Source: an uncultured Bacteroidales bacterium
Lineage (GTDB): Bacteria; Bacteroidota; Bacteroidia; Bacteroidales; UBA932
Reading direction: 5' to 3'
Length of the DNA stretch: 32,000 bases
NCBI GenBank assembly: GCA_944323445.1
Contig: CALUSM010000024.1
Span: forward strand, 1 to 32,000
The notes under the pieces: generated by a model
Databases searched by the model: none
Told to the model about the DNA's origin: nothing
Seen by the model: only the letters and a program-made list of their open reading frames with translations
Part shown: piece by piece, positions 275-15,542 of the stretch
How positions within the stretch are numbered: position 1 is the stretch's first letter
Layout: each line of letters starts with the position of its first letter
Translations under genes and position numbers: made by a program

Positions 275-1846
275 ATGGACACACAGCAGAGACTCTTCCC
301 GATAGGACGGCAGGACTTCGCCGAGATAAGGACGGCGGGTAATTTCCTTTATGTAGACAAGACAGAGTACGTCTACAGGATGACTCACTCCGGTGCCAAG
401 TTCATCTTTCTCAGCCGCCCCAGGAGGTTCGGAAAGTCGCTGCTGGTATCCACCCTCCACAGTTACTTCGAGGGGCGGAGGGAACTGTTCCAGGGGCTGG
501 CCTTAGAGGCGCTTGAAAAGGACTGGACGGTGCATCCGGTACTGCACTTCGACATGAGTATCGCCAAGCATACGGACAAGGAGCAGCTGGAATTGATGCT
601 GGATGACCAACTCTCAGGATACGAAAGAATCTACGGATTGAAGTCCGAAAAGGACAAAGGTCCGAACCTGCGTTTAAAAAGGCTGATTGAGACCGCCTGC
701 ACACAGACCGGGCAGAAAGTGGTCGTGCTCATCGACGAATACGACGCACCACTGCTGGATGTGGTGCACGAGGACACTACCCTGCCGGTGCTCCGCAACG
801 TCATGCGCAACTTCTACAGCCCCCTCAAGGCCTGCGACCCGTATCTCCGCTTCGTCTTCATGACCGGCATCACCAAGTTCTCCCAGCTCAGCATCTTCAG
901 CGAGCTCAACAACCTGGAGAACATCAGCATGCTGGAGCAGTACGCAGCCGTATGCGGCATCACCGAGGAGGAGATCCTTACCCAGATGAGCCCGGACCTG
1001 GACATTCTGGCCGGAAGGCTGGGCCTGAGCCGGGAAGATACCTTCGCCAGACTGAAAGCCAAGTACGACGGCTACCACTTCACCTGGCCCTCGCCCGACA
1101 TCTACAACCCGTTCAGCCTCATCAGAGCCTTCGCCAATGCAAAGCTCGACTCCTACTGGTTCGGAAGCGGAACTCCGACATATCTCATAGAGATGATACG
1201 CAAGTTCCGCATGACACCCATCCAGCTGGGAGAGACCTGCAAGGCCGGCAAGGACGAATTTGACACTCCCACAGAGAGACTGTCCAGCATCATCCCCCTG
1301 CTCTACCAGAGCGGATACTACACCATCAAAAAGGGCATTCCCGCCATCGAATCCTATACTTTGGGCATACCCAACCAGGAGGTACGCATCGGCCTGTTCC
1401 GCTCGCTGATACCGTACTACGTGACTCCTGACACCATATCGGCTTCCTCCACCCTCATAACCATGGCGGAATGCCTCCTCGAAGATGACATGGACGGAGC
1501 GCTGAAGGCCATGCAGACCTTCCTCGGCACCGTCCCCTACACCGACAACACCGATTACGAGGGCCACTGGCAGCAGGTACTCTACATCATCTTCTCCCTC
1601 CTCGGCTACTTCGCGGACGTGGAGGTCCACACTCCGAAAGGCAGAGTGGACATGGTCATGCGCACCGCCTCTAAACTCTACTTAGTGGAGCTGAAACTTG
1701 ACGCCGGCGCGGAAGCCGCCATGCGGCAGATAGACCTGAAGCAGTATCCGGAGCGCTTCGCCCTCTGCGGCCTGCCCGTCGTCAAGGTCGCGATCGATTT
1801 CGACCGGGAGACACACAACATCTCCGGCTGGAAGATTTCAAGCTGA
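275..1846 (+). CDS. AAA-ATPase-like domain + PD-(D/E)XK nuclease-like (PDDEXK_9/DUF1703-type) protein
   Basis: 523-aa ORF. The N-terminus (FPIGRQDFAEIRTAGNFLYVDKTEYVYRM...FLSRPRRFGKSLLVSTL) is the hallmark of the Bacteroidales predicted AAA-ATPase family. The C-terminal part (GRVDMVMRT...LYLVELKLD) fits the fused PD-(D/E)XK module. Call is by recall of the family, not by search. Confidence 0.75.
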   Translation: MDTQQRLFPIGRQDFAEIRTAGNFLYVDKTEYVYRMTHSGAKFIFLSRPRRFGKSLLVSTLHSYFEGRRELFQGLALEALEKDWTVHPVLHFDMSIAKHTDKEQLELMLDDQLSGYERIYGLKSEKDKGPNLRLKRLIETACTQTGQKVVVLIDEYDAPLLDVVHEDTTLPVLRNVMRNFYSPLKACDPYLRFVFMTGITKFSQLSIFSELNNLENISMLEQYAAVCGITEEEILTQMSPDLDILAGRLGLSREDTFARLKAKYDGYHFTWPSPDIYNPFSLIRAFANAKLDSYWFGSGTPTYLIEMIRKFRMTPIQLGETCKAGKDEFDTPTERLSSIIPLLYQSGYYTIKKGIPAIESYTLGIPNQEVRIGLFRSLIPYYVTPDTISASSTLITMAECLLEDDMDGALKAMQTFLGTVPYTDNTDYEGHWQQVLYIIFSLLGYFADVEVHTPKGRVDMVMRTASKLYLVELKLDAGAEAAMRQIDLKQYPERFALCGLPVVKVAIDFDRETHNISGWKISS

Positions 1847-1953: not shown

Positions 1954-2847
1954 ATGGAATACTTCAGCGAACCTTATGACAGCACCACACTGGTCGAGGG
2001 GCTTCAGCTACGGGGGCTTTCCGTAGCCGATGAGGAGGCCGCACGCAAGTTTCTGGACAATGTGAACTACTTCCGGATACATCCCTACCTGCGGGCGGTA
2101 GAAGCCGACCACAACGCCCACAGATACAGGCAGGACTGCTCGTTCGACATGGTTGCGGACCTGTACAGGTTCGACTGCCGGCTCAAGATTATCCTCTTCG
2201 AGGCCATCCAGCAGATAGAAGTGGCCCTGAGAGCCAGAATCATCAGAGTGTTCTCCCTGCTGCACGGCCCGTTCTGGTTCACTGACGAGAGCCTTTTCTC
2301 GGACAAATCAGCCTTTTTCAGGACTTTAGGCATCATAGAAGACACTGTGGACAACTCACAGGAAGACTACATAAGGGACCACTGGCTGCTGTATGAGACC
2401 ACCCCGTTTCCTCCGGCATGGAAGACCCTCGAAGTCCTCTCTTTCAGCACCATTTCATTCCTCTACCGCAACTTCACCAACAATCAGGCGAAAAAAGCCG
2501 TCGCCCGGGAATTCGGTCTGCCCCAGCACCTCTTCCTCGAGAGCTGGATCCGCTCCATAGCCGTCCTCCGCAACATCTGCGCCCACCACATCCGCCTATG
2601 GAACCGCAAGTTCAACATCAAGCCCCGCCTCCCCAGGCACCTCGACCACCCCTGGATTACCCGCCCCTGCCAGGACATCAACCGCCTCTACCCCATTCTC
2701 ACAGCCGTCGCCTACCTCACCGACCGCCTGCACCCCGCCTCCGACTTCAAGCGGGACCTCAAGGCCCTCATCGCCTCACATCCCTCGGTCAATCTTTCTG
2801 CAATGGGCTTTCCGCAGGGATGGAGGGATGAGCCTCTGTGGGAGTAA
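1954..2847 (+). CDS. Abi-like protein (Abi_2 / AbiD-AbiF family, abortive-infection-type)
   Basis: 297-aa ORF. The N-terminal region (LVEGLQLRGLSV...EEAARKFLDNVNYFRIHPYLRAV) and the central LRNICAHHIRLWNR motif are typical of Pfam Abi_2-type proteins. Assigned by recall. Confidence 0.7.
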   Translation: MEYFSEPYDSTTLVEGLQLRGLSVADEEAARKFLDNVNYFRIHPYLRAVEADHNAHRYRQDCSFDMVADLYRFDCRLKIILFEAIQQIEVALRARIIRVFSLLHGPFWFTDESLFSDKSAFFRTLGIIEDTVDNSQEDYIRDHWLLYETTPFPPAWKTLEVLSFSTISFLYRNFTNNQAKKAVAREFGLPQHLFLESWIRSIAVLRNICAHHIRLWNRKFNIKPRLPRHLDHPWITRPCQDINRLYPILTAVAYLTDRLHPASDFKRDLKALIASHPSVNLSAMGFPQGWRDEPLWE

Positions 2848-2927: not shown

Positions 2928-3170
2928 ATGGATTCTTCAATGTTAAAGACTCTTTGCTCCATTGACCATCTGCTGTCATCATGGGACATCATCAAAAGCA
3001 AAAATTCCTCCGGTGGTATTGACGGTGAAAGCATCTCCGAATTTGACAAAAATCTGAAAGACAACCTGCAGGAGCTGGCCGATGAGCTCTCAACCGGGAA
3101 ATGGATACCGCACCCATATCTCAAGATAGAGATTCCAAAGAATAAAATGGATTACTCGAAGCCAGAATAA
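2928..3170 (+). pseudogene. N-terminal fragment of the RT domain of an RT-Cas1 fusion, detached by an out-of-frame internal deletion
   Basis: The 80-aa ORF has group-II-intron-like RT N-terminal sequence (SSGGIDGESISEFDKNLKDNLQELADELSTGKWIPHPYLKIEIPKNK, i.e. RT motif 0 to the start of motif 1). It then hits TAA at 3168-3170. RT sequence resumes in another frame, open from 3146. Confidence 0.75.
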
Positions 3171-3202
3171 AATCTGTAATTACAGACGCAGAAATTGTAC
3201 GG

Positions 3203-4960
3203 TTGATTATGCTCTGCGTCAAGATGGGCGTAGTCACCAAAGGGATAAAATGGGATGACGTAGAGAAGGGTGTCCCTCAAGGAGCCGTACTGTCCCCGCT
3301 GCTGGCCAACCTTTACCTGCACTCAATGGACCAGCACATCATCTCACGTACTGCTGCGTACGTCAGATATGCCGATGACTTCATAATCCTGACAGAGACA
3401 GAAGAAACAGCCAAGGCAATCTGCTCTGATACCGAAACTTATCTTAAAGAAAAATTAAAACTTCCTCTGAATGAGCCGGCGATAACTCCACTCTCTGAAG
3501 GAGTCAAGTTTCTCGGTATCACCATAAAGAAAGACTCCTTCGGCATAAGTGAAGAAAAACGGTGCGAGATACTTGAGAAGATCTCCTCACTGAACCTCAG
3601 CAGCCGCGGGCTGGACCGCAGCAGTGCAAAAAAATGGTCCGGCATCATTGCCTACTACGGCCAGCTGCTTCCGGAGCCCGAGCTTCGGATGATTGACACC
3701 GCATTTCTCTCTTTTCTACAGCAGACTGTCACGGATGACTGGGATAAGTTCCCAAGCCGGAGCGCATTGCGGAAAACCCTGGACGAGTTTCATTTTCTCA
3801 GCGCCGACTTCCGGCTAAGAGAGAAAGACATAAAAATCACCTTGCTAAAATCGTATGCATCAGCGAAGAGAGACAACACCGGTGAGAGCATACAACTGAG
3901 CAACAAAAAAATCATTCTCAAACGCAAACGTGAATACCAGCTTAAAGAGGCTCAGAATTCAGAGCTCATAATCACCAAACCCGGTGTGACAGTAGGGCTT
4001 ACACAGAAAGGCATCACCGTAAAATCCAAAGGCAAGGTCATCAGTTCTTTTCCTCCTTCCAACCTGAAACACATAATAATCCTTTCAGACGGAGTAGGCC
4101 TTTCCAGCAATCTCCTCCGGCATACTCTCAAACACAAAATACCGGTAGACTTTTTCAATTATGACGGTGTGCATCTCGGTTCTTTTCTATCCGCTTCTTC
4201 TTTTCAATGCAGGCTGTGGCAGCATCAGTCAGAGGCAGGGAATATAAAACGGAACTTTCTGGCCGGCAAGATCATAGACGGGAAACTGAGCAACCAGCTC
4301 AATCTCATTAAATACTTTCACAAATATCACAAACTGTCATTGCCGGAGCTACAGACACATCTGGACAGCCTTGAATCCATAGTAGACAGACTCAGAGCAA
4401 CTCTTAAAAACGGGTCCCCGGAAATGCCGGACTTCATACCTGCAATTACAGCTCACGAAGCCAATGCTGCCGCAAAATACTGGGAATGTGTAAGATGTCT
4501 GTTATCAAACGATGATGTGGGCTTTGAGAAAAGAGTACATCAGCACGCCACAGATTTGGTCAACTGCCTCCTCAACTACGGTTATGCCATACTCTACACC
4601 AGATGTTGGCAGGCCCTGCTTGCCGCACAGCTCAACCCCTATGACAGCGTCATCCACGCCCGTCAGCCAGGGCAGCCGACATTTGCATTCGATTTCATCG
4701 AGATATTCAGAGCACAGGCTGTGGACAGAGTAGTCATCTCCATGATTCAGAAAAACGAGCCTCTGAGCATAACTGACGGCAGACTGTCAAAAGAGAGTAA
4801 GACACTCCTCATACGTAACATCTCCGAAAGGCTGTACAAACCGGAGAAATTCCGTAAAGAGAACATGAATCTGGCAAAAATCATCAAAGTTCAGGCTTCA
4901 GAAATCGCCGGATACTTCAATGACGGCAACAAGTTCAGGCCATATAAAGCAAAATGGTAA
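3203..4960 (+). CDS. cas1: RT-remnant (motifs 4-5 onward, thumb) fused to Cas1 integrase
   Basis: The 585-aa ORF starts at TTG in the track; its frame is open from 3146. RT motif 4 GVPQGAVLSPLLANLYL and motif 5 YVRYADDFIIL (YADD at 3368-3379) are present. The Cas1 domain runs from about aa 255 (nt ~3965): ELIITKPGVTVGL..., HEANAAAKYW, NCLLNYGYAILY, AFDFIEIFRAQAVDRVV. The stop overlaps the cas2 start. Confidence 0.85.
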   Translation: MIMLCVKMGVVTKGIKWDDVEKGVPQGAVLSPLLANLYLHSMDQHIISRTAAYVRYADDFIILTETEETAKAICSDTETYLKEKLKLPLNEPAITPLSEGVKFLGITIKKDSFGISEEKRCEILEKISSLNLSSRGLDRSSAKKWSGIIAYYGQLLPEPELRMIDTAFLSFLQQTVTDDWDKFPSRSALRKTLDEFHFLSADFRLREKDIKITLLKSYASAKRDNTGESIQLSNKKIILKRKREYQLKEAQNSELIITKPGVTVGLTQKGITVKSKGKVISSFPPSNLKHIIILSDGVGLSSNLLRHTLKHKIPVDFFNYDGVHLGSFLSASSFQCRLWQHQSEAGNIKRNFLAGKIIDGKLSNQLNLIKYFHKYHKLSLPELQTHLDSLESIVDRLRATLKNGSPEMPDFIPAITAHEANAAAKYWECVRCLLSNDDVGFEKRVHQHATDLVNCLLNYGYAILYTRCWQALLAAQLNPYDSVIHARQPGQPTFAFDFIEIFRAQAVDRVVISMIQKNEPLSITDGRLSKESKTLLIRNISERLYKPEKFRKENMNLAKIIKVQASEIAGYFNDGNKFRPYKAKW

Positions 4961-5250
4961 TGAGAGCAACTAAAAAATTCATCGTTGTCGCATACGACAT
5001 AAGCAATACCAAGCGCCGCAACCGCGTGGTAAAGATACTTAGGCAGTACGGCGTCCGGGTCAATCTCAGCGTCTTTGAGTGCATGCTTTCTGAGAGTCAG
5101 TTCGAAAATCTGAAAACGTCAGTCGCTGAGACCATCAACATCTCTCATGACAAAATCATTTACTACAGCCTATGTCTGGACTGCTACGCAAAAATCACCT
5201 ATATACCGAAAAAACAGGCAAATCCTATTTCCACAACTAATGTAATATAA
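4954..5250 (+). CDS. cas2: Cas2
   Basis: 98-aa ORF directly after cas1. FIVVAYDISNTKRRNRVVKILRQYGVRVNLSVFEC is a typical Cas2 N-terminal ferredoxin fold with the conserved Asp. The alternative start ATG at 4960 forms TAATG with the cas1 stop. Confidence 0.9.
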   Translation: MVMRATKKFIVVAYDISNTKRRNRVVKILRQYGVRVNLSVFECMLSESQFENLKTSVAETINISHDKIIYYSLCLDCYAKITYIPKKQANPISTTNVI

Positions 5251-5717: not shown

Positions 5718-6456
5718 GTTTACCTTTTATCCATTAGAACAAGGATTAAGACTGCCTCAGCGAGGTTTGCGGCCTTACCGGAGAGGTGTTTACCTTTTAT
5801 CCATTAGAACAAGGATTAAGACACAAACGCTGAGCCTCGAGAGAGGTTCCGGCCACGGTGAGTTTACCTTTTATCCATTAGAACAAGGATTAAGACAAGA
5901 ACTGGTCGGGCATCTCACCTCCTTTGTAAAGTTTACCTTTTATCCATTAGAACAAGGATTAAGACGTTGAAATCAAACTCCTCCAAAGTTCCCTCACAGG
6001 AGTTTACCTTTTATCCATTAGAACAAGGATTAAGACATTATACTGCCTCGTCAGAGCCGAAGCTGAAACAGTTTACCTTTTATCCATTAGAACAAGGATT
6101 AAGACAAGCTCTTGTAGAGCTTTAAAGTTTTCTTTAGCCGTTTACCTTTTATCCATTAGAACAAGGATTAAGACAAAAAATTTTTAATGGTTACACAATA
6201 ATTATTCAGTTTACCTTTTATCCATTAGAACAAGGATTAAGACTCATCACCTTGAACTCACCTCTCGTCTCAGAATTGAGTTTACCTTTTATCCATTAGA
6301 ACAAGGATTAAGACGGCTGAACCGGTGTCCTTCAAAGGTATCGGGAAAGTTTACCTTTTATCCATTAGAACAAGGATTAATACAACTCTTCGATAATCAC
6401 TGAGTTAGCCCTAATAGTATCGTTTATCTTTTATCCATTAGAACAAGAACTTTGGT
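5718..6456 (+). CRISPR. CRISPR array, 11 repeats / 10 spacers, 35-bp repeat GTTTACCTTTTATCCATTAGAACAAGGATTAAGAC
   Basis: Repeats start at 5718, 5788, 5862, 5931, 6002, 6071, 6140, 6209, 6280, 6349 and 6422. Spacer lengths are 35, 39, 34, 36, 34, 34, 34, 36, 34 and 38 bp, all unique. Repeat 10 has a G->T change (..TTAATAC). Repeat 11 has C->T at position 6 and diverges after about 26 nt. Orientation is inferred from the leader position, the terminal-repeat decay and the 3' octamer ATTAAGAC, which resembles type III 5' tags. Confidence 0.97.
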
Positions 6457-6777: not shown

Positions 6778-7509
6778 TTATTTATTATTAGGCTCAACTT
6801 CCTTTAGTTCCTCTAGCCGGCCATAGCCGACGTTGGTTTTGGCCCCTATACCGTATGTCGTAAGAATCTTCTTGAACCACTCTTCCTTTTTATCTCTACA
6901 CTCCTTCTCCCCTGACAGGTGGAAACGGAATTCTATGGTGCAGCCGGGCGCTATCTTTGCAAAGGTGATGGGTATGGGTTCCTTGAAAGGGTCGTCCTGT
7001 GAATGCGGCGCAAGAGCATCCATCTCAAAGATTGTTTTTCTTTCCTCATTTTTATTTTTATCTCTGACAACAGATGCATCAAAAAAGATATCCCGCTCAT
7101 AGATGGATTTGGTGCTGCCGTCCGGCTTTTTACCCTCGAAAATATCCAGAATGGCGGCATTTATATCCGGATTCTGAAGGTCATACACCTGAGGGAAATA
7201 AGAGCGTAGCACACCCTTTACGGTCGAGCCGCTTATGATGGGCGTACCGTGAGTATAATCAAAATTGATTCCAAGCTTTATCTCTCCCTCAACCCCCATC
7301 TCGTGGCTGACCCCCACACCGGTTATCAGGCCGGGATAACAGACTTTCATTTTGAAATCGGCATTGACGTACTCTACCTTCTCTACCTCGCCTATATCCT
7401 TCGGAGTCAGGCCTGTGAGCTTCCTGTTAAGTCGGGTGATATTGCCGGAAGGCTTTATACCCTCCTCGAAATAATCCTTGTAGAAGAATTTATGCAGATT
7501 CTCGCTCAT
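6778..7509 (-). CDS. cmr6: Cmr6 (type III-B RAMP subunit)
   Basis: 243 aa. Motifs: PGLITGVG, GTPIISGSTVKGVLRSYF, and the C-terminal glycine loop YGIGAKTNVGYGRL. It is the last gene of the cmr operon and overlaps cmr5 by ATGA. Confidence 0.85.
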   Translation of the reverse strand: MSENLHKFFYKDYFEEGIKPSGNITRLNRKLTGLTPKDIGEVEKVEYVNADFKMKVCYPGLITGVGVSHEMGVEGEIKLGINFDYTHGTPIISGSTVKGVLRSYFPQVYDLQNPDINAAILDIFEGKKPDGSTKSIYERDIFFDASVVRDKNKNEERKTIFEMDALAPHSQDDPFKEPIPITFAKIAPGCTIEFRFHLSGEKECRDKKEEWFKKILTTYGIGAKTNVGYGRLEELKEVEPNNK

Positions 7510-7937
7510 GACTCTACCTGTTTATATGTTCTCACTACCAGTTTGAGCGCGATGGCACAGTCTATCATCTCCCGTTTAAGAGCGTTCTCGACTGCCTGGT
7601 CACATTTCGGCGTCTTGACAAAATCCTTCAATTCTGCAACGGATGATGGGAGCTTTACGTCATTTTTAGCATTGTTCTTAATCTTGGTGAATCCGTCCAT
7701 TTTCATCATCTTCAGCAGCACCTCCAGAATCACACCACGATTGACTTTGCCCGAGTCTTTGTCCTGGGCATAGATTATAATGGTGGGTTTCAGACCGCTC
7801 ATGGCAACAGAAACGGGGAAAGCAGACACGAGTCCGTCATACGAGGAGTTTATGGTCTTGTTTTTACTCAGCATACTGCTGCCGGCAAGCGCTTCATCCG
7901 CAATAGGTATCAGTTTGCTTATACGATTCTTATCCAT
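7506..7937 (-). CDS. cmr5: Cmr5 (type III-B small subunit)
   Basis: 143-aa protein with helical-looking sequence, sitting in the canonical position between cmr4 and cmr6. The call rests mainly on size and synteny. Confidence 0.65.
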   Translation of the reverse strand: MDKNRISKLIPIADEALAGSSMLSKNKTINSSYDGLVSAFPVSVAMSGLKPTIIIYAQDKDSGKVNRGVILEVLLKMMKMDGFTKIKNNAKNDVKLPSSVAELKDFVKTPKCDQAVENALKREMIDCAIALKLVVRTYKQVES

Positions 7938-7949
7938 AGTCTGTCCTCC

Positions 7950-8642
7950 CTATACTATCTTGGTTATCCTGCAATATCCGTATCCGATGGTAGCATTGGC
8001 GCCTATCTGCACCAGCGAACCGTCCAGAATCTCTGTAAACCCTCCTACATCCCCACTGGTAAAGAAATACAGTACGGTCTTCGAGGGCAGCACCTGCTCG
8101 TTCCATAGATTGGTACTGAGACCGTTTTCAAGGCAATTCCTGGCGACAATGGGCAGATTCTCGTTATCGCACGCAGTGACAAAACTATCATTACTCATCA
8201 CCGTCCGGTCAAGATGGAAAAAGTCCTCATACTCGTAGGGATCATTGGGAAAGTTATCCCATTCAATACCGAGCATCTTATTTCTCTGAAGAAACAAGTT
8301 CACAACCTGACGGCTCGTCTCATAGTGATACAGTTTGTTGTCGTCCTGAACCGGAAGGAACAGAATATGCGCATCGAAGAAGATTACATTTCCCTTCTGC
8401 TGCTTCTTGTTCTCACCGCATTTATCGGAGCCGAATATGTCTATCCTCGTCCCCGAATCAATTTTCTTGAATTTGGTAAAATACTCATTTATTGCTCCTT
8501 TAAGCGAGCTGGAATTGATGCAGGGAAGGTTAGTAAGGGGGTCGCGCTGTACCGCCTTGTCGATGATACCGTAGTTGGAGCTGTTCTCGTTGCCCACATG
8601 CAGATTGGTTTCGGCTGTTATAAGCCAGAGATGACTGTTCAT
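7950..8642 (-). CDS. cmr4: Cmr4 (type III-B backbone RAMP, target-RNA cleaving subunit)
   Basis: 230 aa. The N-terminus WLITAETNLHVGNENSSNYGIIDKAVQRDPLTNLPCINSSSLKGAINEYF fits the Cmr4/Csm3 pattern including the acidic catalytic position. C-terminal G-rich loop IGANATIGYGYCRI. Confidence 0.85.
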   Translation of the reverse strand: MNSHLWLITAETNLHVGNENSSNYGIIDKAVQRDPLTNLPCINSSSLKGAINEYFTKFKKIDSGTRIDIFGSDKCGENKKQQKGNVIFFDAHILFLPVQDDNKLYHYETSRQVVNLFLQRNKMLGIEWDNFPNDPYEYEDFFHLDRTVMSNDSFVTACDNENLPIVARNCLENGLSTNLWNEQVLPSKTVLYFFTSGDVGGFTEILDGSLVQIGANATIGYGYCRITKIV

Positions 8643-8657
8643 ATCGATTTGCGTTTT

Positions 8658-9791
8658 TTATAATTTGTCTATTCTGTATTGATTATATCCTATCTGACGG
8701 AAATTTTGCGCCGACTCAACGGCATCCACAAACTTCCGAGCATTCTCAGGTCCGGAAAAATAAAACACTGAGCCTGCGCTGAAAAGGTCGTACCGGGAAC
8801 TCTGCTTAAGTCCTCCGTCCGACACGTTATAAGACGTGGTCTTACGTACATCCGAGTTGAGGTGTCTGAAAGGAACCGTTTCAGTTATAGCAAAATCCGG
8901 CAGCGACATTGCATCACCTACCTTGATAAATGAGGGCGAAGTCAGCGATATCCTGACCGCAGTCGTCTGCTCTTCCTGCATAATGGATTCCGGCAGCCAG
9001 CTATCCGCCGGCTCAACGCCTATTCTGAACATGGAGTTGTCCGCCCCGACGGACACTGTCTCTCCATTGAAGGAAAGAATGTCCGCGCAGTCTTCCATCT
9101 CCACATAGAACGCGAACACATAGTAGGAGCCGTTGGCCTGCTTGGCAAAACGGTAATTGATCTGCTTGTACATAGCATTGTCGCCCACCTTTCCGGTATC
9201 CAGATCACGGCTGATGCCCATGCGCCGGTCCTCCGCAAACACCTTGCCCATACCTACTGTTTTTCCACTGCCAGATGCAATAAGATACCGGCCGTAAGCA
9301 TAGCCCTTCTTCTCCGGATAGTTCTGCTTCCGGATAAGGGCCGGAAGCACTTTTTGTTGTCCGTTATACCACCCGTTCTCCTGGCCGTTGCTGAAATCCA
9401 CATTGAACTCAGAGTCAAACGGAGCGGGGAAGAGATTCCTGCAGAAGTTCCCGTTCCCCTGATACTCCCGTATGAAGCACTCGGACAGACGGAGAATCTG
9501 ACCGTATCCGCTGCCTCTGTCGGCAGAGAAGCTGTGTCCGCCGATCAAGCTTAATGCTCCGTCCGGGTCAGTAATCTTACTCCCGTCGAAATATTTGCTG
9601 TGGCGCAGGAGGAAGAAGCGCATCATACCCAGCAGGGATGTCTGCTGAGGAAAATAACCGGACTTGATAATGTAGCTGATTTCAGGAGCGGATTTCTTCC
9701 CGTTTTCCTGAATGCCTGTCGAGAATTTCATCTCTCCTCCGAAGAAAAACTTATCCACCGGAGTCAATGTTATCAGATAATACTTACTCAT
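8658..9791 (-). CDS. cmr3: Cmr3
   Basis: 377 aa. The N-terminus YYLITLTPVDKFFFGGEMKF is Cmr3-like. It lies directly after cas10 with an 8-nt overlap. Confidence 0.8.
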   Translation of the reverse strand: MSKYYLITLTPVDKFFFGGEMKFSTGIQENGKKSAPEISYIIKSGYFPQQTSLLGMMRFFLLRHSKYFDGSKITDPDGALSLIGGHSFSADRGSGYGQILRLSECFIREYQGNGNFCRNLFPAPFDSEFNVDFSNGQENGWYNGQQKVLPALIRKQNYPEKKGYAYGRYLIASGSGKTVGMGKVFAEDRRMGISRDLDTGKVGDNAMYKQINYRFAKQANGSYYVFAFYVEMEDCADILSFNGETVSVGADNSMFRIGVEPADSWLPESIMQEEQTTAVRISLTSPSFIKVGDAMSLPDFAITETVPFRHLNSDVRKTTSYNVSDGGLKQSSRYDLFSAGSVFYFSGPENARKFVDAVESAQNFRQIGYNQYRIDKL

Positions 9792-11259
9792 CTTTCGGAT
9801 CCTCCCCTTTTATAAATTTTGCCGTGCGCATCGCACTGTAGAGCATCGCCTCGTATCCTTCTTTCGGAAAACAATCATAAAGGCGTTCCATCATTTCCCG
9901 GACTGCCGCATGATATGACGAACCTCTGTCCTCCAGGATTTTTTCAAAGAGCATTTTCAGACGTTCATCCCGCAAAGCAGCGTCCTTTGTTTTCAATACC
10001 TGCGTCATCAGGGCTGCGTTCTCGCGGAGCTTGTGAGCCACAGCCGAGACTGTATTGCCGTCTTTCGTCTCATCTATCAGGGCATAGAATGCTTTGGACA
10101 GATTCTCGTCAGAGTTTGAGAATGCCGCTTCGAAACCGCTGCCGCTGTGCTTTGTCAGTTTCCATGCCACAGCATTCTTTCCGGATATTCCCTTAGCCTT
10201 GTTCAGGAGCGAGTCCGCCAGTTCCAAAGCCTCGTAAAGCGGGAACTTGTAATAGGAAATGGACAGTCCATAGGACATGGATGCCCTGATCGTATTTCCG
10301 TCCTTTTTCAGTCCTATGCCATCAATTTCATTTTTCACACCTTTAAAACACTCGGTGCTTATCTCTTTCAACAGCCTGAAAATATCCGTTCCGTCCTCCC
10401 CAACCACAGGCGCAATGAAGAGCAGGTCGTCACCGCCCGCATAAATCGGCAGACCTCCGAAGCCCTTTATCTTCTCCGATGCCAGACGCCCGAAACACAA
10501 AAGCGCATCAGAAATCTGCTCCAACTTTCCTTGCGGCAGATCCGGATGCGTCACCGTCGCACCGACCGAGTCTCCGTCCGCCTTGACTACGCAGATATAC
10601 TTGTGATAGGATTTATAATCTTCCCCGAACGTTTCCTTATAGGCATTCTCTTCAGCCCCGTCATTGTTGAGTAGATTGCTGAACCTATTCCATATCCCAA
10701 CATTTTCTTTTTTCTTTGACACTGCAGCTATCTCTCCCAAGGACGGAATATGGTGAGTATCTTCTCCATATACAAGGAGGAACAGCGGTCTCTGATCCAA
10801 CACTATCTTCATTACTCCCTCAGACAACGATTCAGGCTTAGGGAAATTCATAAGTTCCAGCTTATTGAGGGCATCATTGAGCATCCGCACCGCAACAGAG
10901 TCCGAGCCCGCCTGAACAGTGGCATGCATGATGTTGAAATACTGCCGGTCCAACAGTATTTTTCCATCGATATTCAGACTTGTCGAGAATGTCTGCCAGG
11001 CTTTCTTCTCTATGTCCCCGGCATCTACTGCACCCCGCACGAACAGACGGTCAGGATACAGACCTACCCCCTGTCGGAGCACGGTCCACGGCACTTCTGC
11101 CGGTGAAAGGACGGTACCCTTGGGGACATTGTCGCAAATGCATTTCATCAGATATGAGAACATGTAGCTCGCGGCCCACAGTTCTCTCGGACGGCGGCCC
11201 ATGATGAATGTGGTATATATCGGGCCGATATTGAACGCTGTGTATGTATTCATCGCCAT
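9784..11259 (-). CDS. cas10: Cas10/Cmr2, minimal form lacking the HD nuclease domain; cyclase/polymerase GGDD motif intact
   Basis: The likely start is ATG 11259-11257 (MAMNTYTAFNIGPIY...), forming TAATG with the cmr1 stop; the track ORF extends to 11322. FNIGPIYTTFIMGRRPRELWAASYMFSYL is the conserved post-HD Cmr2 motif and begins at residue ~9, so no HD domain can precede it. Palm2: VVKADGDSVG ... PIYAGGDDLLFIAP (GGDD encoded at 10426-10437). SMSYGLSISYYKFPLYEAL follows. Confidence 0.9.
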   Translation of the reverse strand: MAMNTYTAFNIGPIYTTFIMGRRPRELWAASYMFSYLMKCICDNVPKGTVLSPAEVPWTVLRQGVGLYPDRLFVRGAVDAGDIEKKAWQTFSTSLNIDGKILLDRQYFNIMHATVQAGSDSVAVRMLNDALNKLELMNFPKPESLSEGVMKIVLDQRPLFLLVYGEDTHHIPSLGEIAAVSKKKENVGIWNRFSNLLNNDGAEENAYKETFGEDYKSYHKYICVVKADGDSVGATVTHPDLPQGKLEQISDALLCFGRLASEKIKGFGGLPIYAGGDDLLFIAPVVGEDGTDIFRLLKEISTECFKGVKNEIDGIGLKKDGNTIRASMSYGLSISYYKFPLYEALELADSLLNKAKGISGKNAVAWKLTKHSGSGFEAAFSNSDENLSKAFYALIDETKDGNTVSAVAHKLRENAALMTQVLKTKDAALRDERLKMLFEKILEDRGSSYHAAVREMMERLYDCFPKEGYEAMLYSAMRTAKFIKGEDPKDE

Positions 11260-12587
11260 TAGTTTTGTTTCGGTTTGCTTAAGATAACTTCTCCTTTTCC
11301 ATTGCTGATAATGTTTTCCCATTTAATGTTTTTAGGAATCATTCTATAGCCATTCTTCTTATGATAAGAATCTATTAACTTTTTATAATCAATATACCTC
11401 ATGTCTGTCGGCATTTCCAATACTTCCCTTGACTTCTTCCTACACTCAAATCTGAATTTAACCGTACCTTTATCCCTCATACACTTTATTTCATCTTCAT
11501 TAAATAAAATATAAACTACAACACTTCCGGAATTAAAGACAGGCTTGAAAATAATTGGAGATGCCAGCCTGTCTATCCCTTTATTATTAGTCACGGATAC
11601 GGTATATTGATTTCTGTTGTATGAGTATCCGTTTGACGGATACCCCAACAAAGCTCTCGCAAAGATTGCTGTTCTTCCAGAATCATCATATGTGTCTTTC
11701 TTTCGGCCAAAGAACAAATTAAATTTCGTTTTTATAGCTTTTTTATCCCATGTTCTCTCGGGATTTTCATCTCTTACAAATTGATACAAATAGGATTTGA
11801 CATACGCCCCGCTACGTGGGTAATTTATACCTGACTTCAACGCCCTCCAATAGTAATCTATAACAGAGAACGTTTTATAGAACATAGACTGAGCCGCCAT
11901 ATCCTGTTTTAATGTAAATTCAAAATACTGATAGTTTTTAAGACGTTCCTTTATGTCCTGATCTATTTGGCGCACCTGCTCTCCATCATCATCCTTAACC
12001 TTCCATACAGTAAAACTTCCGAAACCTTTATCTGACCTCTGTCCGAAATTGTTCAGAGCAAAAAACTCTACGATGTTGTCTTTTATCAACTTCCTCAAAT
12101 ATTTTTCTTTGTCGCGCAGAATTTCTACCCGACCTTCTTTTTTCACACAGATTGAAATATTGATACTCAGCTCTACTGTACGCATTCTTTCTTTATCTTC
12201 CTTAACTATGCACAAATCAACATGTTTCGGCTCCCGTCCCATTGTACTCAGCACTAAAGGATAATTCATGTTCTTCAGTGTCACCGAAGTGTCCCTACCT
12301 TGAGCGGATATCTGCATCCTGTAGTTCAGGGCATTGAAACCCTCCTTGCAGAATCTGTTCCTCAATGCCCTTTGTTTTTGCGGATTAGGTGAATAGCCTA
12401 CAAGCAATTCCTCGCATTGCTCAAACTTTCCCTCCCGAGTTGTCCCTGGGAGCTTACTGATCAGGAACCTGTCCAGCTTCGGCTTTACCTCGGTGGCACG
12501 CAGCGTGGCACCTTCGCTGTCATACTGAAAATGCAGCAGCGGGGTATGCTGGATGAGTTTTACGTTAATTTCATTCTCTTTTCCCAT
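11259..12587 (-). CDS. cmr1: Cmr1 (RAMP)
   Basis: 442 aa. N-terminus HTPLLHFQ...GATLRATEVKPKLDRF, and the RAMP glycine loop NNFGQRSDKGFGSFTV. It sits upstream of cas10 as in cmr operons. Confidence 0.7.
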   Translation of the reverse strand: MGKENEINVKLIQHTPLLHFQYDSEGATLRATEVKPKLDRFLISKLPGTTREGKFEQCEELLVGYSPNPQKQRALRNRFCKEGFNALNYRMQISAQGRDTSVTLKNMNYPLVLSTMGREPKHVDLCIVKEDKERMRTVELSINISICVKKEGRVEILRDKEKYLRKLIKDNIVEFFALNNFGQRSDKGFGSFTVWKVKDDDGEQVRQIDQDIKERLKNYQYFEFTLKQDMAAQSMFYKTFSVIDYYWRALKSGINYPRSGAYVKSYLYQFVRDENPERTWDKKAIKTKFNLFFGRKKDTYDDSGRTAIFARALLGYPSNGYSYNRNQYTVSVTNNKGIDRLASPIIFKPVFNSGSVVVYILFNEDEIKCMRDKGTVKFRFECRKKSREVLEMPTDMRYIDYKKLIDSYHKKNGYRMIPKNIKWENIISNGKGEVILSKPKQN

Positions 12588-12588
12588 A

Positions 12589-14871
12589 TCATTTATTTTT
12601 TTGTTTCATAAGATGACTGATTAAACATCCCAATCCGGCACTCAATACTACCACGACACCGAAATACCACCAGAAGTCTGGAATAACGTCATGCCACTTA
12701 TTCATACCCAGGAGTCCTGCAACTAAAGAACCGGGGAGGAAGAACGCAGCCAGCATGTTAAGCCATTCTCCATTCTTATTGCGCCTGCTGTCTATCCTCA
12801 GGTCTATATAGCGGTTCAGCTCGTCTATCTCTCCGTCAAGGGCTTTTATCTGACGCTCGGTGTCAAACTGCCTGGATATCATCTCGTACAGCTCGATACC
12901 CTGATCCTGGGTGGTGACGCTGCGGAAGTATATCTGATTGATAAAGCGGATATAGCCCAGATACAGAGATTTGATAGGTTCTTCTATTTCTTTCAAGTCC
13001 TTTTTCAGGTTTATGTCCCGACATAACTTGGTAACTTCTCCGGAGAACCTCAGAAGGGAGGCGCGCTGGACTATCATCAGCTCGAAGAGACGGGCATATA
13101 TCGTCCGCATGTGCATGGCGATGACACTGGTGGAAAAACCGCTCTCGTCAGTCAATGCCACAAGCGAGTACCTTGATACTCCGTACAAAGTGCCGTAGTC
13201 CTTCCAGCGGGTATATGTGCTCTCGGACAGAAGACGGTCCCTCATCTCCTTGTCCTGACAAGAAGGACAGTTTCCCTCATCCAAAAATACGAACTTGTAC
13301 CAAGAATTCTTAAAACTATCATATTCTGCTATTTTCTGTGACAGTTCTTTGTTTCCGTACCAACAGTTTACCAGCATGCGGTCATCCACCACCGGCACGA
13401 CATCCATATCGGGGAAGATATCGTGTATAAGATTGAGAATCATGGACGACACAGTCCATGTATCATCCACGCCTTTCCGTTTCTCATCCTGTATATAACA
13501 GTAACGGAAATCATCTTTATATCTGTCCTGAGCATCCGACTGCAGACCCCGTATACTGATTGACTTAGCCAGCTGGCTACGCTGCCAGTCATTGAATTCT
13601 CCGGCATTAGGAGGCATGACTCTTCTGCCGTACTGATTGATATTTCTGACATCGGCCTCACTTTTCTGACTCTCTTTCTTATTGGCAAGATACAAAGTGA
13701 GGACACCTATTCCTGTAGAATAAATATTGAGATTTATGGATTCTACTTTCAGTTCATACTTTTTGTCCTTTACTTCTATCTCATACTTCACATCACGGGC
13801 TTCCGGCTCAAGTCTCTCATAATGGCGGAGTATATTGTTTTTCTCATCCATACTGTCATACAGTACCGGATGCACAAATTCGAAAAAGTACTGCTTCTCA
13901 CCGAAAAGCTCCGAGGCCTCCTTCATGGCCATAACATCCCGCTGCGGCACGCCCTTCCTTATCCTGGCCCGCCTCCATACCTTCTGTCCCGGAACCTCCT
14001 TAAGGCCGGCCACATCATACCTGTCCGTAAAAAGCTTACTACCAGTATCCTTAAAGCCCCATTTGAACGGAAAATAGAAAACATGATAGCTGTAGACCTT
14101 CCAATAACCTTTGACCTCCTTTAAAATATCTTCTGTCTCCGTTTCTCCCTTTATGCCTACGCCCCAGTAACCGTCCTCGCCGCCTCCGCTGTACAGACCG
14201 TCCCTTCCCTCAGGGAAAATCTTTTTCCTGACTTCAGCTGCATCCTTGCCATAGTAGCAAAGCTCAGTATCAGTACAAATCACCAATGCGACATAGGGAT
14301 AAAGCCAGTCGGATATAACTGAGAACACTCCCTTGAGAGACTGATATTCTTTAGGAACATTCACAATAGTCAAATCCCCAACGGAATCCTTTTTCGGCAG
14401 AATCTCCTTTTTCACCGTCTTCTCTGTTTCCTTGTCTATTCCCTGAGCCCTCCTGTCTTCCCTACGGATGTCCTCCACCTCCTGCGCCGTCGCCCCCTCC
14501 TTCAACATTCCTGGGATATATCGGGTGTCATTTGCCGCCACAAGCCTCATCCTATGGTCCATCCGCACTCCGAGGATTTCCGCCACCTGCTCCAGCGAAG
14601 ATGGACGGCAGTCCGCATCTCCGTGATGGTCTATGGATGTATAGTTTTCAGGTATCCGGACATCTTCCCGAAGCTCCACTCCATAAATCTGATATTCCTG
14701 CCGGTCCCCATATTTCCGGAGTTCCTCCTCATAATTTATGAGCGAAGCACTGCTCCACGAAAGATTTTTGTCAGAATACAGCAGGCCATCTCCTCTTCTC
14801 GCTTCTAAAAGCTCCTTTATGGTACACATCTCCAGATCGTGTCCCCCGAGCAGAAATACTTTTTTCTTCAT
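12589..14871 (-). CDS. corA: CRISPR-associated membrane effector: DHH/DHHA1 (NrN-like) phosphodiesterase domain fused to a CorA-type domain (2 C-terminal TM helices, GMN motif)
   Basis: 760 aa, inside the cas operon; its start overlaps the cas6 stop as ATGA at 14868-14871. DHH-type signatures in order: GGHDLE (aa 9-14), IDHH (aa 80-83, nt 14623-14634), AANDT (aa 112-116), SGGGEDG (aa 228-234). The C-terminus is WLNMLAAFFLPGSLVAGLLGMNKW...FWWYFGVVVVLSAGLGCLISHL, with GMN at aa 722-724 (nt 12700-12708). Confidence 0.8.
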   Translation of the reverse strand: MKKKVFLLGGHDLEMCTIKELLEARRGDGLLYSDKNLSWSSASLINYEEELRKYGDRQEYQIYGVELREDVRIPENYTSIDHHGDADCRPSSLEQVAEILGVRMDHRMRLVAANDTRYIPGMLKEGATAQEVEDIRREDRRAQGIDKETEKTVKKEILPKKDSVGDLTIVNVPKEYQSLKGVFSVISDWLYPYVALVICTDTELCYYGKDAAEVRKKIFPEGRDGLYSGGGEDGYWGVGIKGETETEDILKEVKGYWKVYSYHVFYFPFKWGFKDTGSKLFTDRYDVAGLKEVPGQKVWRRARIRKGVPQRDVMAMKEASELFGEKQYFFEFVHPVLYDSMDEKNNILRHYERLEPEARDVKYEIEVKDKKYELKVESINLNIYSTGIGVLTLYLANKKESQKSEADVRNINQYGRRVMPPNAGEFNDWQRSQLAKSISIRGLQSDAQDRYKDDFRYCYIQDEKRKGVDDTWTVSSMILNLIHDIFPDMDVVPVVDDRMLVNCWYGNKELSQKIAEYDSFKNSWYKFVFLDEGNCPSCQDKEMRDRLLSESTYTRWKDYGTLYGVSRYSLVALTDESGFSTSVIAMHMRTIYARLFELMIVQRASLLRFSGEVTKLCRDINLKKDLKEIEEPIKSLYLGYIRFINQIYFRSVTTQDQGIELYEMISRQFDTERQIKALDGEIDELNRYIDLRIDSRRNKNGEWLNMLAAFFLPGSLVAGLLGMNKWHDVIPDFWWYFGVVVVLSAGLGCLISHLMKQKNK

Positions 14872-15542
14872 ATCCGTTCTATAGATTTTATTGTTCCGAA
14901 CCCCGTACTGACGCCCTTGCCCAGACCTATGCCGGATGGCAGCATGACATTGCTTTTGAATGATATGTCCAGGCCTATGAAACCGACGCCCTTGTAGGAC
15001 AGCCGGTGCTGTCTGTGCATATCTGAAATGCGGCAGACCACTTCATCCCCGAAGAACAGCCCTACTCCCTTGGCGAAACTCAGGATATTGCCGGTAAGGA
15101 TGTTCTCGAGGAAGGATAACTTGTCGACCAGACTCTCGATAGCGCTGTAAACCTTGTAGTTATCCTCATTGAGCGGAATCCAGCCCGACATCTCGTAGGA
15201 CACAGGCTCCTTCACTATAGCGACCTCGACAGTCTCCTCCCTCACCGAGTCGAGAAAAAGATCGACCGGATGTCCTCCCAATACTACCCGGCTGCTGTAG
15301 TTCGAGAAGTAATCCTGAAGTGCGGCACTGCCCTGCTCTATGCCGATGATCGCTGCACGGCCGTCCAGCACTTTGTACTGCACAAGAGGATAAGAGTACC
15401 TCAGGCCGTCACCTATATGATTGTGAAACATGACATTGTCCTGCTTAAGGCAGTTGATTACAGCTCCACGGAACCGTGGAATCCAGGACCTCGGGACAGT
15501 ATTTCCAAAAAGGACAGTAGTAATGGTGAGGTTCTTCTTCAT
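14868..15542 (-). CDS. cas6: Cas6 crRNA-processing endoribonuclease
   Basis: 224 aa. IPRFRGAVINCL...FHNH...LRYSYPLVQYKVLDGRAAIIGI is typical of the Bacteroidetes Cas6 family. C-terminal glycine-rich loop GIGLGKGVSTGFGTI. It is the first gene of the cmr operon. Confidence 0.8.
   Translation of the reverse strand: MKKNLTITTVLFGNTVPRSWIPRFRGAVINCLKQDNVMFHNHIGDGLRYSYPLVQYKVLDGRAAIIGIEQGSAALQDYFSNYSSRVVLGGHPVDLFLDSVREETVEVAIVKEPVSYEMSGWIPLNEDNYKVYSAIESLVDKLSFLENILTGNILSFAKGVGLFFGDEVVCRISDMHRQHRLSYKGVGFIGLDISFKSNVMLPSGIGLGKGVSTGFGTIKSIERI

Follow-up and report, generated by a model that had tools for sequence, protein, structure and literature searches.

The closest described relatives of the gene considered here are found in the type III-B (Cmr) CRISPR system of Bacteroides fragilis (PMC10600005; NrN structures, Protein Data Bank (PDB) IDs: 9lq9-9lqc; Cmr structures, PDB IDs: 9lq5-9lq8). 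In the B. fragilis group, the phosphodiesterase NrN and the membrane effector CorA are separate proteins, as a preliminary description of the present DNA had said; in Bacteroides hominis locus L041, nrn and corA are two genes that overlap by ATGA. We used this split system as a proxy for the B. fragilis proteins when mapping residues. Fusions of nrn and corA have been reported earlier in Beggiatoa sp. PS (EDN71418.1; Shmakov et al. 2018, bioRxiv 270033) and in Aliarcobacter butzleri and relatives (Chi et al. 2023, PMC10600005). Here, we analyzed positions 1 to 32,000 of contig CALUSM010000024.1 (assembly GCA_944323445.1) from an uncultured Bacteroidales bacterium. This 32,000-nucleotide (nt) stretch is called the window. 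On its minus strand, a single gene, nrn::corA, encodes NrN and CorA as one polypeptide of 760 residues. We put the probability that this gene is a bifunctional accessory effector (NrN phosphodiesterase plus CorA) of a type III-B CRISPR system at about 0.85. It is an uncharacterized Bacteroidales example of an already known architecture; the fusion itself is not new and has been in the literature since 2018. The preliminary description had stated that such fusions were noted in surveys and that none was characterized. This matches the two reports above, and our literature searches found no later paper and no published study of a fused NrN-CorA protein.

The locus has the same gene order as the B. 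fragilis system (cas6, nrn, corA, cmr1, cas10, cmr3-6), and a CRISPR array, cas2, and a reverse transcriptase (RT)-cas1 gene are common to both. The NrN fold and catalytic residues, the CorA RR/DD residues and its module of two transmembrane helices flanking GMN, and the Cas10 residues D70, E151, and GGDD are all kept. In the window, nrn and corA form one open reading frame (ORF), whereas those of the B. fragilis group are two overlapping genes. NrN and CorA are only 42-44% identical to their counterparts in the B. fragilis group, and Cas10 is 33% identical. The window Cas10 has 491 residues and is about 110 residues shorter than the Cas10 of B. hominis and B. fragilis (600 residues). B. hominis also has an ORF of 159 residues between corA and cmr1, for which the window offers no equivalent. 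We considered this ORF as an NYN ribonuclease and dropped the assignment; its sequence looks like that of a transmembrane and coiled-coil protein. The fusions reported earlier belong to the same architecture class, a single polypeptide within a type III-B locus. They come from Proteobacteria and Campylobacterota, whereas the window protein comes from an uncultured Bacteroidales-like gut lineage; this comparison is by published description.

One uninterrupted reading frame holds both the NrN and the CorA domain, and this is reproducible across homologues and contigs. The junction sequences, read directly, show that the stop codon of cas6 overlaps the ATG of nrn::corA as ATGA, and that the stop codon of nrn::corA is 1 nt from the ATG of cmr1. 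The preliminary description was therefore correct in placing a 760-residue ORF with these junctions inside the cmr operon; it had left the strand unstated. The motif positions it gave are also exact (GGHDLE 9-14, IDHH 80-83, AANDT 112-116, SGGGEDG 228-234, and GMN 722-724). Gene calls on 23 contigs, which come from independent ENA metagenome samples, include the identical 760-residue product with the same neighboring genes. In the homology search, full-length homologues of about 760 residues with 40-99% identity predominate among the best 120 matches. Full-length fused homologues were found at 96%, 89%, 75%, and 70% identity, with hundreds more at 40-50%. One full-length homologue comes from Culturomica massiliensis; its RefSeq entry bears no annotation beyond "CorA family divalent cation transporter". 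The closest named relatives of the window protein are from Bacteroidales metagenome-assembled genomes (MAGs). Among the GTDB species representatives there is no close copy, and the best match (52% identity) comes from uncultured Bacteroidales MAGs.

A frameshift was observed in one related cluster. The cluster is that of P0005, which is 75% identical to the window protein, and on 4 contigs the frame is shifted 5' of the NrN GGG motif. This yields a truncated NrN of 258 residues (P0142) and a CorA-containing ORF of 530 residues (P0141). This may reflect a hydrolase domain that was inactivated in nature, or else a sequencing error that recurs. We rejected it as a clean recent fission, as the frameshift falls within NrN itself and upstream of the GGG motif, and it was not used as evidence.

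The N-terminal 257 residues belong to the NrN family of phosphodiesterases, with a predicted active site that is intact. In a sequence search, residues 2-253 matched crystallized NrN (PDB ID: 9lq9, chain residues 10-252; E 1.2e-53; also 9lqa and 9lqc) and the PADLOC family DHH_CorA ("DHH family hydrolase, CorA associated"; E 4.6e-58). The domain is 44% identical to B. hominis NrN. An AlphaFold2 (AF2) model of the monomer was obtained from a 47-sequence alignment, with a mean predicted local distance difference test score (pLDDT) of 86.4 and a predicted template modeling score (pTM) of 0.78. The NrN domain of this model superposes in Foldseek on 9lqa, the E21A mutant of NrN with S-adenosylmethionine (SAM)-adenosine monophosphate (AMP), hereafter SAM-AMP, and on 9lqb (TM(target) 0.92, root-mean-square deviation 1.8 Å, E ~1e-25). 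Both comparisons bear out the NrN-like assignment made in the preliminary description, which had itself proposed a structural comparison with NrN. Residues E14 and D115 are the equivalents of E21 and D119, which were mutated in the substrate-trapped NrN crystals (9lqa, E21A; 9lqc, D119A). E14, D81-H82-H83, D115, and G229-G231 are all present, and their conservation among 47 homologues is at least 90%.

The relation of this domain to the DHH superfamily is more distant. The Pfam models for DHH (PF01368) and DHHA1 (PF02272) gave no match at E<=10, either with the whole protein or with the isolated N-terminal domain (residues 1-256), though the homology to NrN is unambiguous. This Pfam check, suggested in the preliminary description, is a false negative. 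Because the models do not match even at this threshold, NrN is taken to be a divergent branch of the DHH superfamily. The preliminary description had read DHH/DHHA1 signatures in the canonical order. The motif positions stand, while the canonical family label was overstated. In the model, the link to the superfamily is visible by structure only, at the level of the fold. The next-best structural matches are RecJ (PDB ID: 2zxo), GdpP (PDB ID: 5xsp), and PggH (PDB ID: 7d62), with Foldseek E values of 5e-5 to 3e-4. The fold, the DHH triad, and a glycine-rich motif are shared with the DHH/DHHA1 phosphoesterases (RecJ, GdpP, PggH, and NrnA). The NrN domain is compact (about 255 residues, compared with about 310-330), it has GGGxxG where the others have GGGH, and the substrate of its crystallized homologue NrN is SAM-AMP.

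The C-terminal part is a CRISPR-associated CorA, as had been proposed. Residues 259-742 match the CRISPR-specific PADLOC CorA profile (PDLC01174, E 1.8e-112), and the part is 42% identical to B. hominis CorA over 473 residues. The Pfam CorA profile (PF01544) matches residues 649-749 with 28.3 bits, which is narrowly over its gathering cut-off of 27; this was the outcome of another check that the preliminary description had put forward. CorA channels in the PDB match residues 681-748 in a sequence search (E ~0.007), and Foldseek matches of the membrane module are CorA structures 8tmn, 3jcf, and 4ev6. The two hydrophobic helices that had been noted around GMN are confirmed as stretches 703-721 and 733-755, with Kyte-Doolittle means of 1.6-2.1 in 19-residue windows. 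Basic residues are found ahead of the first helix (RRNK) and at the C-terminus (KQKNK), a placement that fits the N-in/C-in topology of CorA proteins. The counterparts of R152/R153 and D219/D220 of B. hominis CorA are R416/R417 and D496/D497, which are invariant in 47 homologues. Mutation of the R152/R153 and D219/D220 pairs in B. fragilis CorA abolishes immunity (PMC10600005). This RR/DD cluster is a putative SAM-AMP site. With the canonical CorA, ZntB, and Mrs2 channels, the CorA part shares a long stalk helix, two C-terminal transmembrane helices, and GMN at the end of the first of these. Its cytoplasmic domain has no sequence match to their funnel domain, it is encoded in a cas operon, and it would be gated by a nucleotide signal. 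There is no solved structure of a CRISPR-associated CorA in the PDB copy that we searched.

The junction between the two parts is short. In the AF2 model, the last NrN helix (residues 243-257) continues directly into the first CorA strand (residues 261-273), with pLDDT values of 88-97. The distance from the GGG motif to the SYH motif at the N-terminus of CorA is 32 residues in the window protein and 27-35 residues in 142 of 164 fused homologues. The same distance summed over the separate NrN and CorA of B. hominis is 35 residues. The spacing in fusions is thus close to that of the split pair, which argues that no linker was added, and on these alignments the NrN-CorA junction is essentially linker-less. 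The modeled junction is compatible with an NrN domain that is rigidly mounted on CorA's cytoplasmic domain. In the 25 split loci examined, the nrn stop and corA start overlap by 4, 8, 11, or 14 nt, or are separated by a gap of <=10 nt; an overlap of the ATGA type is seen in B. hominis and seven other split loci. Since the genes overlap or abut, a single indel or the loss of a stop codon suffices for fusion. The fusion probably originated in this way, by loss of the nrn stop codon or a shift of frame at a tightly coupled nrn-corA junction.

Such fusions are not confined to the window. A scan seeded on CorA motifs gave 80 species-level loci: 14 have a single fused ORF, 47 carry nrn directly upstream of corA as a gene of its own, and in 19 there is no nrn upstream of corA. 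Fused genes thus make up 14 of the 61 species loci that carry nrn. With only the NrN domain as query, an exhaustive search gave 762 relatives. The best 150 cluster representatives of the NrN family include 58 NrN-CorA fusions, 73 stand-alone proteins or fragments, and 14 proteins with NrN C-terminal to another protein; the fused share here is probably overestimated, because the representatives were ranked by how similar they are to a fused query. On a neighbor-joining tree of the CorA domain (59 taxa), Fitch parsimony requires 8 changes between the fused and split states (6-8 over 100 bootstraps). With shuffled labels, the mean is 12.8 changes and the minimum is 9. The window protein lies within a fused clade with 100% bootstrap support. 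The fusion is common, not rare, and the tree indicates that it arose or reverted several times, with about 6-8 transitions.

Three deep-branching fused ORFs (L056, L064, and L079) are much longer, at 905-984 residues. Their homology to CorA does not pick up again until about query residue 524. A large insertion, or a sensor domain that has diverged, is therefore suggested to lie between NrN and the CorA stalk. The NrN-family domain is also found at the C-terminus of other partners outside the window (P0222, P0229, and P0317, about 400-612 residues; P0200 and P0217, about 480 residues). It occurs C-terminal to CARF-PD(D/E)xK nucleases of the Can2/Card1 type (PADLOC CARF4--CARF_PDDEXK, 2e-43 to 3e-48) and C-terminal to Cas6 (PADLOC Cas6, 2e-51). 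The pairing with a CARF nuclease is curious: either this branch of NrN degrades another molecule or the CARF domain senses another.

The signal expected at this locus was examined through Cas10. The longest ORF for Cas10 (9784-11322, minus strand) encodes 512 residues and overlaps cmr1 by 64 nt. A start at the ATG of M22 gives 491 residues and overlaps the cmr1 stop by 1 nt. Gene callers also pick the 491-residue start, and M22 is likely to be the true start. Residues D70, E151, and GGDD of B. hominis Cas10 align to D91, E156, and D298/D299 in the numbering of the 512-residue ORF. Counted from M22, D91 becomes D70, the same number as in B. fragilis. No HD-domain profile matched Cas10. D70 and E151 adapt the acceptor site to SAM, and the D70N/E151R double mutant does not synthesize SAM-AMP (PMC10600005). 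As the CorA RR/DD residues, the Cas10 D70/E151 equivalents, and GGDD are all kept, signaling by SAM-AMP at this locus is a well-supported inference.

By analogy with B. fragilis, we propose the following mechanism. A Cmr complex with its CRISPR RNA would bind target RNA, and the activated Cas10 would join SAM and adenosine triphosphate (ATP) into SAM-AMP. SAM-AMP would bind to the cytoplasmic domain of the CorA part, which is presumably pentameric. The bound CorA would then perturb the membrane and halt the growth of the infected cell. The NrN part, present once per CorA subunit and held at the membrane, would hydrolyze SAM-AMP to SAM and AMP. The fusion would guarantee a 1:1 stoichiometry, such that CorA is never made without the hydrolase, and would set the hydrolase beside the receptor. 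It would also hard-wire the turnover of the signal that is obligatory for CorA-mediated immunity. When the system was reconstituted in E. coli, CorA immunity was absent unless NrN or a catalytically active SAM-AMP lyase was present, which the authors called "enigmatic" (PMC12255297). The degrading enzyme is dispensable for immunity in systems that use cyclic oligoadenylates (cOA), whereas it is required with CorA (PMC12255297).

The preliminary description had seen the fusion as an off-switch tethered to the effector, with a signal that has to outcompete it. This is a reasonable reading, with a parallel in Csx1-Crn2, but degradation of SAM-AMP is required for immunity and does not serve only to shut it off (PMC12255297). 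In Csx1-Crn2 ("fuse to defuse"; PMC7293037, PMC11317161), and in some CARF effectors with intrinsic ring-nuclease activity, a type III effector activated by a second messenger is likewise joined to the degradation of its own activator. The signal in Csx1-Crn2 is cyclic tetra-adenylate (cA4), whereas SAM-AMP is the likely signal of NrN-CorA. The folds are unrelated (CARF-HEPN and Crn2, compared with DHH-like and CorA), and the effector is a soluble RNase there and a membrane protein here.

Several points weigh against this account. An unrelated SAM-AMP lyase can stand in for NrN (PMC12255297); therefore, physical contact between NrN and CorA is not needed in split systems, while catalysis is strictly needed. 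This substitution weakens the claim that tethering itself is mechanistically essential, and the fusion is best seen as hard-wired stoichiometry, co-expression, and proximity of an obligatory partner. The packing of the two domains is judged from the pTM of an AF2 monomer. SAM-AMP is assigned as the signal from conserved residues, and other signals may serve some clades of CorA (PMC11229360). We found no biochemical work on any fused NrN-CorA in the literature. Finally, both fused fractions are biased, one by the ranking of the best 150 on a fused query and the other by seeding of the locus scan on CorA motifs.

A bolder version of the account is possible but doubtful, and we offer it tentatively. 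NrN may dock on the N-terminal face of each CorA subunit, in fused and split systems alike, to give a 5:5 receptor-hydrolase assembly in which SAM-AMP is turned over on the effector, as in a self-resetting pulse channel. The grounds for this proposal are the confidently predicted linker-less junction, the repeated fusion, and the fact that nrn and corA are translationally coupled where they are split. If true, docking and on-effector turnover would explain why degradation is required for immunity.

Other explanations were weighed against a bifunctional NrN-CorA effector. The signal could differ from SAM-AMP, being a cOA species or SAM-AMP2 that the NrN domain degrades. A divergent Actinomyces clade of CorA is proposed to respond to cyclic hexa-adenylate (PMC11229360), a type III-D2 system makes both SAM-AMP2 and SAM-AMP (PMC13294483), NrN-family domains are joined to CARF-PD(D/E)xK nucleases as well, and the window Cas10 is just 33% identical to that of B. 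hominis. We nevertheless consider another signal improbable, as the equivalents of Cas10 D70 and E151 are conserved, the neighborhood is of the III-B CorA-1 type with the gene order of B. fragilis, and the NrN domain superposes on a crystal structure with SAM-AMP bound. It is more improbable still that the NrN domain of the fusion is degenerate and serves CorA as a second ligand-binding or regulatory module, with no hydrolase activity. The blindness of the Pfam DHH/DHHA1 models to the domain and the GGGxxG motif in place of GGGH could be taken as signs of degeneration. However, the catalytically active NrN of B. fragilis has the same features (41-44% identity, TM 0.92), and across fused homologues the conservation of E14, D81-H82-H83, D115, and the GGG motif is at least 90%.

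That the CorA part is a housekeeping Mg2+/Co2+ transporter which merely adjoins the cas genes is very improbable. The NCBIfam corA equivalog (TIGR00383) scores 15.7 bits, far under its cut-off of 200.75; the soluble domain fits the CRISPR-specific profile; and the gene is translationally coupled to cas6 at one end and cmr1 at the other. The Pfam CorA match, the GMN motif, and the NCBI label of one homologue as a divalent cation transporter would favor it, but the resemblance to ordinary CorA is limited to the last ~100 residues, that is, to the transmembrane module, and we rejected this explanation. There is hardly any room left for the view that the single ORF reflects an artefact or recent degeneration, in which a sequencing or assembly frameshift joined two genes with no functional fused protein as the product. 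One indel could indeed join nrn and corA in split relatives, where they overlap by a few nucleotides, and frameshifted variants occur in a related 90% cluster (P0141 and P0142; 4 contigs each). This view is effectively refuted by the occurrence of the same product on 23 contigs from independent samples, by full-length fused homologues from 96% identity down to the hundreds at 40-50%, by the bootstrap support of the fused clade, and by the retention of catalytic or ligand-site residues in both halves.

The features of the locus are collected in Table 1. It is a complete type III-B locus with cas6, nrn::corA, cmr1, cas10, cmr3-6, array, cas2, and RT-cas1. Apart from the fusion, it is an ordinary and apparently intact Bacteroidales type III-B system.

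Table 1. Coordinates of the nrn::corA gene, its domains, and the surrounding type III-B genes in the window, with the evidence for each.
Feature	Position	Strand	Evidence
nrn::corA fusion gene	12589..14871	-	single ORF, 760 residues plus stop; exact product on 23 contigs
NrN domain, residues 1-257 (SAM-AMP phosphodiesterase family, divergent DHH superfamily)	14101..14871	-	9lq9, PADLOC, Foldseek
CRISPR-CorA cytoplasmic sensor domain, residues 258-700	12772..14100	-	PADLOC CorA 1.8e-112; RR/DD residues
CorA-type membrane module: transmembrane helix 1 (TM1) 703-721, GMN 722-724, TM2 733-755, basic C-terminal tail	12589..12771	-	hydropathy, Pfam, PDB, Foldseek
cas6 (Cas6b type)	14868..15542	-	Pfam Cas6b_N 2e-22, Cas6b_C 5e-31; PADLOC Cas6 2.8e-47
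cmr1	11259..12587	-	PADLOC Cmr1 2.4e-64
cas10/cmr2, 491 residues from M22, predicted SAM-AMP synthase	9784..11259	-	PADLOC Cas10b 1.9e-56; PDB 9lq5 5e-35
cmr3	8658..9791	-	Pfam Cas_Cmr3 1e-13; PADLOC Cmr3 8e-28
cmr4	7950..8642	-	NCBIfam Cmr4 2.4e-33; PADLOC Cmr4 6.5e-35
cmr5	7506..7937	-	PADLOC Cmr5 1.3e-20
cmr6	6778..7509	-	NCBIfam Cmr6 1.5e-28; PADLOC Cmr6 5e-30
CRISPR array, 11 repeats of ~35-36 nt (GTTTACCTTTTATCCATTAGAACAAGGATTAAGAC), last two degenerate	5718..6452	+	repeat search (families D1 and D2); Tandem Repeats Finder
cas2	4954..5250	+	PADLOC Cas2_IIIb 5e-29
RT-cas1, RT part disrupted: 80-residue fragment 2928-3170 and 585-residue ORF 3203-4960	2928..4960	+	Pfam Cas_Cas1 1.8e-60, partial RVT_1

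The RT part of RT-cas1 appears to be disrupted. In a tblastn search, B. hominis RT-Cas1 aligns with residues 7-77 in one frame (2949-3161) and residues 153-756 in another (3155-4957). The RT domain thereby lacks about 75 residues (B. hominis residues 78-152), and the Cas1 part is intact. The match to PADLOC Cas1_IIIb spans profile positions 168-617 only. A pair of genes of 80 and 583 residues was called in the same way on independent contigs; the disruption is therefore not an assembly error. In the array, the two repeats nearest to cmr6 (6348-6452) are degenerate (…GGATTAATAC and GTTTATCTTTT…). This suggests a leader at the cas2-proximal end and plus-strand transcription of the array, so that array and cmr operon would be convergent.

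An AbiD/Abi_2 abortive-infection gene (1954-2847, plus strand; PADLOC AbiD 1e-67) lies just beyond RT-cas1, and a predicted protein with AAA-ATPase_like and PDDEXK_9 domains is encoded at 275-1846 (plus strand). With these genes beside RT-cas1, the CRISPR locus sits in a small defense island. ORFs of 150-175 residues run antisense to the cmr genes on the plus strand (7249-7773, 7780-8238, and 10147-10674). The two that were scanned against profiles, 7249-7773 and 7780-8238, had no family match. Chance is the most likely origin of these antisense ORFs.

Of the branches of type III CRISPR signaling, that of the CorA-type effectors is the least understood. What is new from this analysis is quantitative, namely, the frequency of the fusion, its recurrence, and the linker-less junction, and is of modest value for choosing targets. 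These three features support the view that NrN and CorA work as a unit. The natural fusion fixes the stoichiometry of the two and, as a construct of a single gene, is attractive for structural studies and electrophysiology. It would be a natural cryo-EM sample for the question of NrN-CorA docking, and may reveal the position of the hydrolase relative to the sensor domain.

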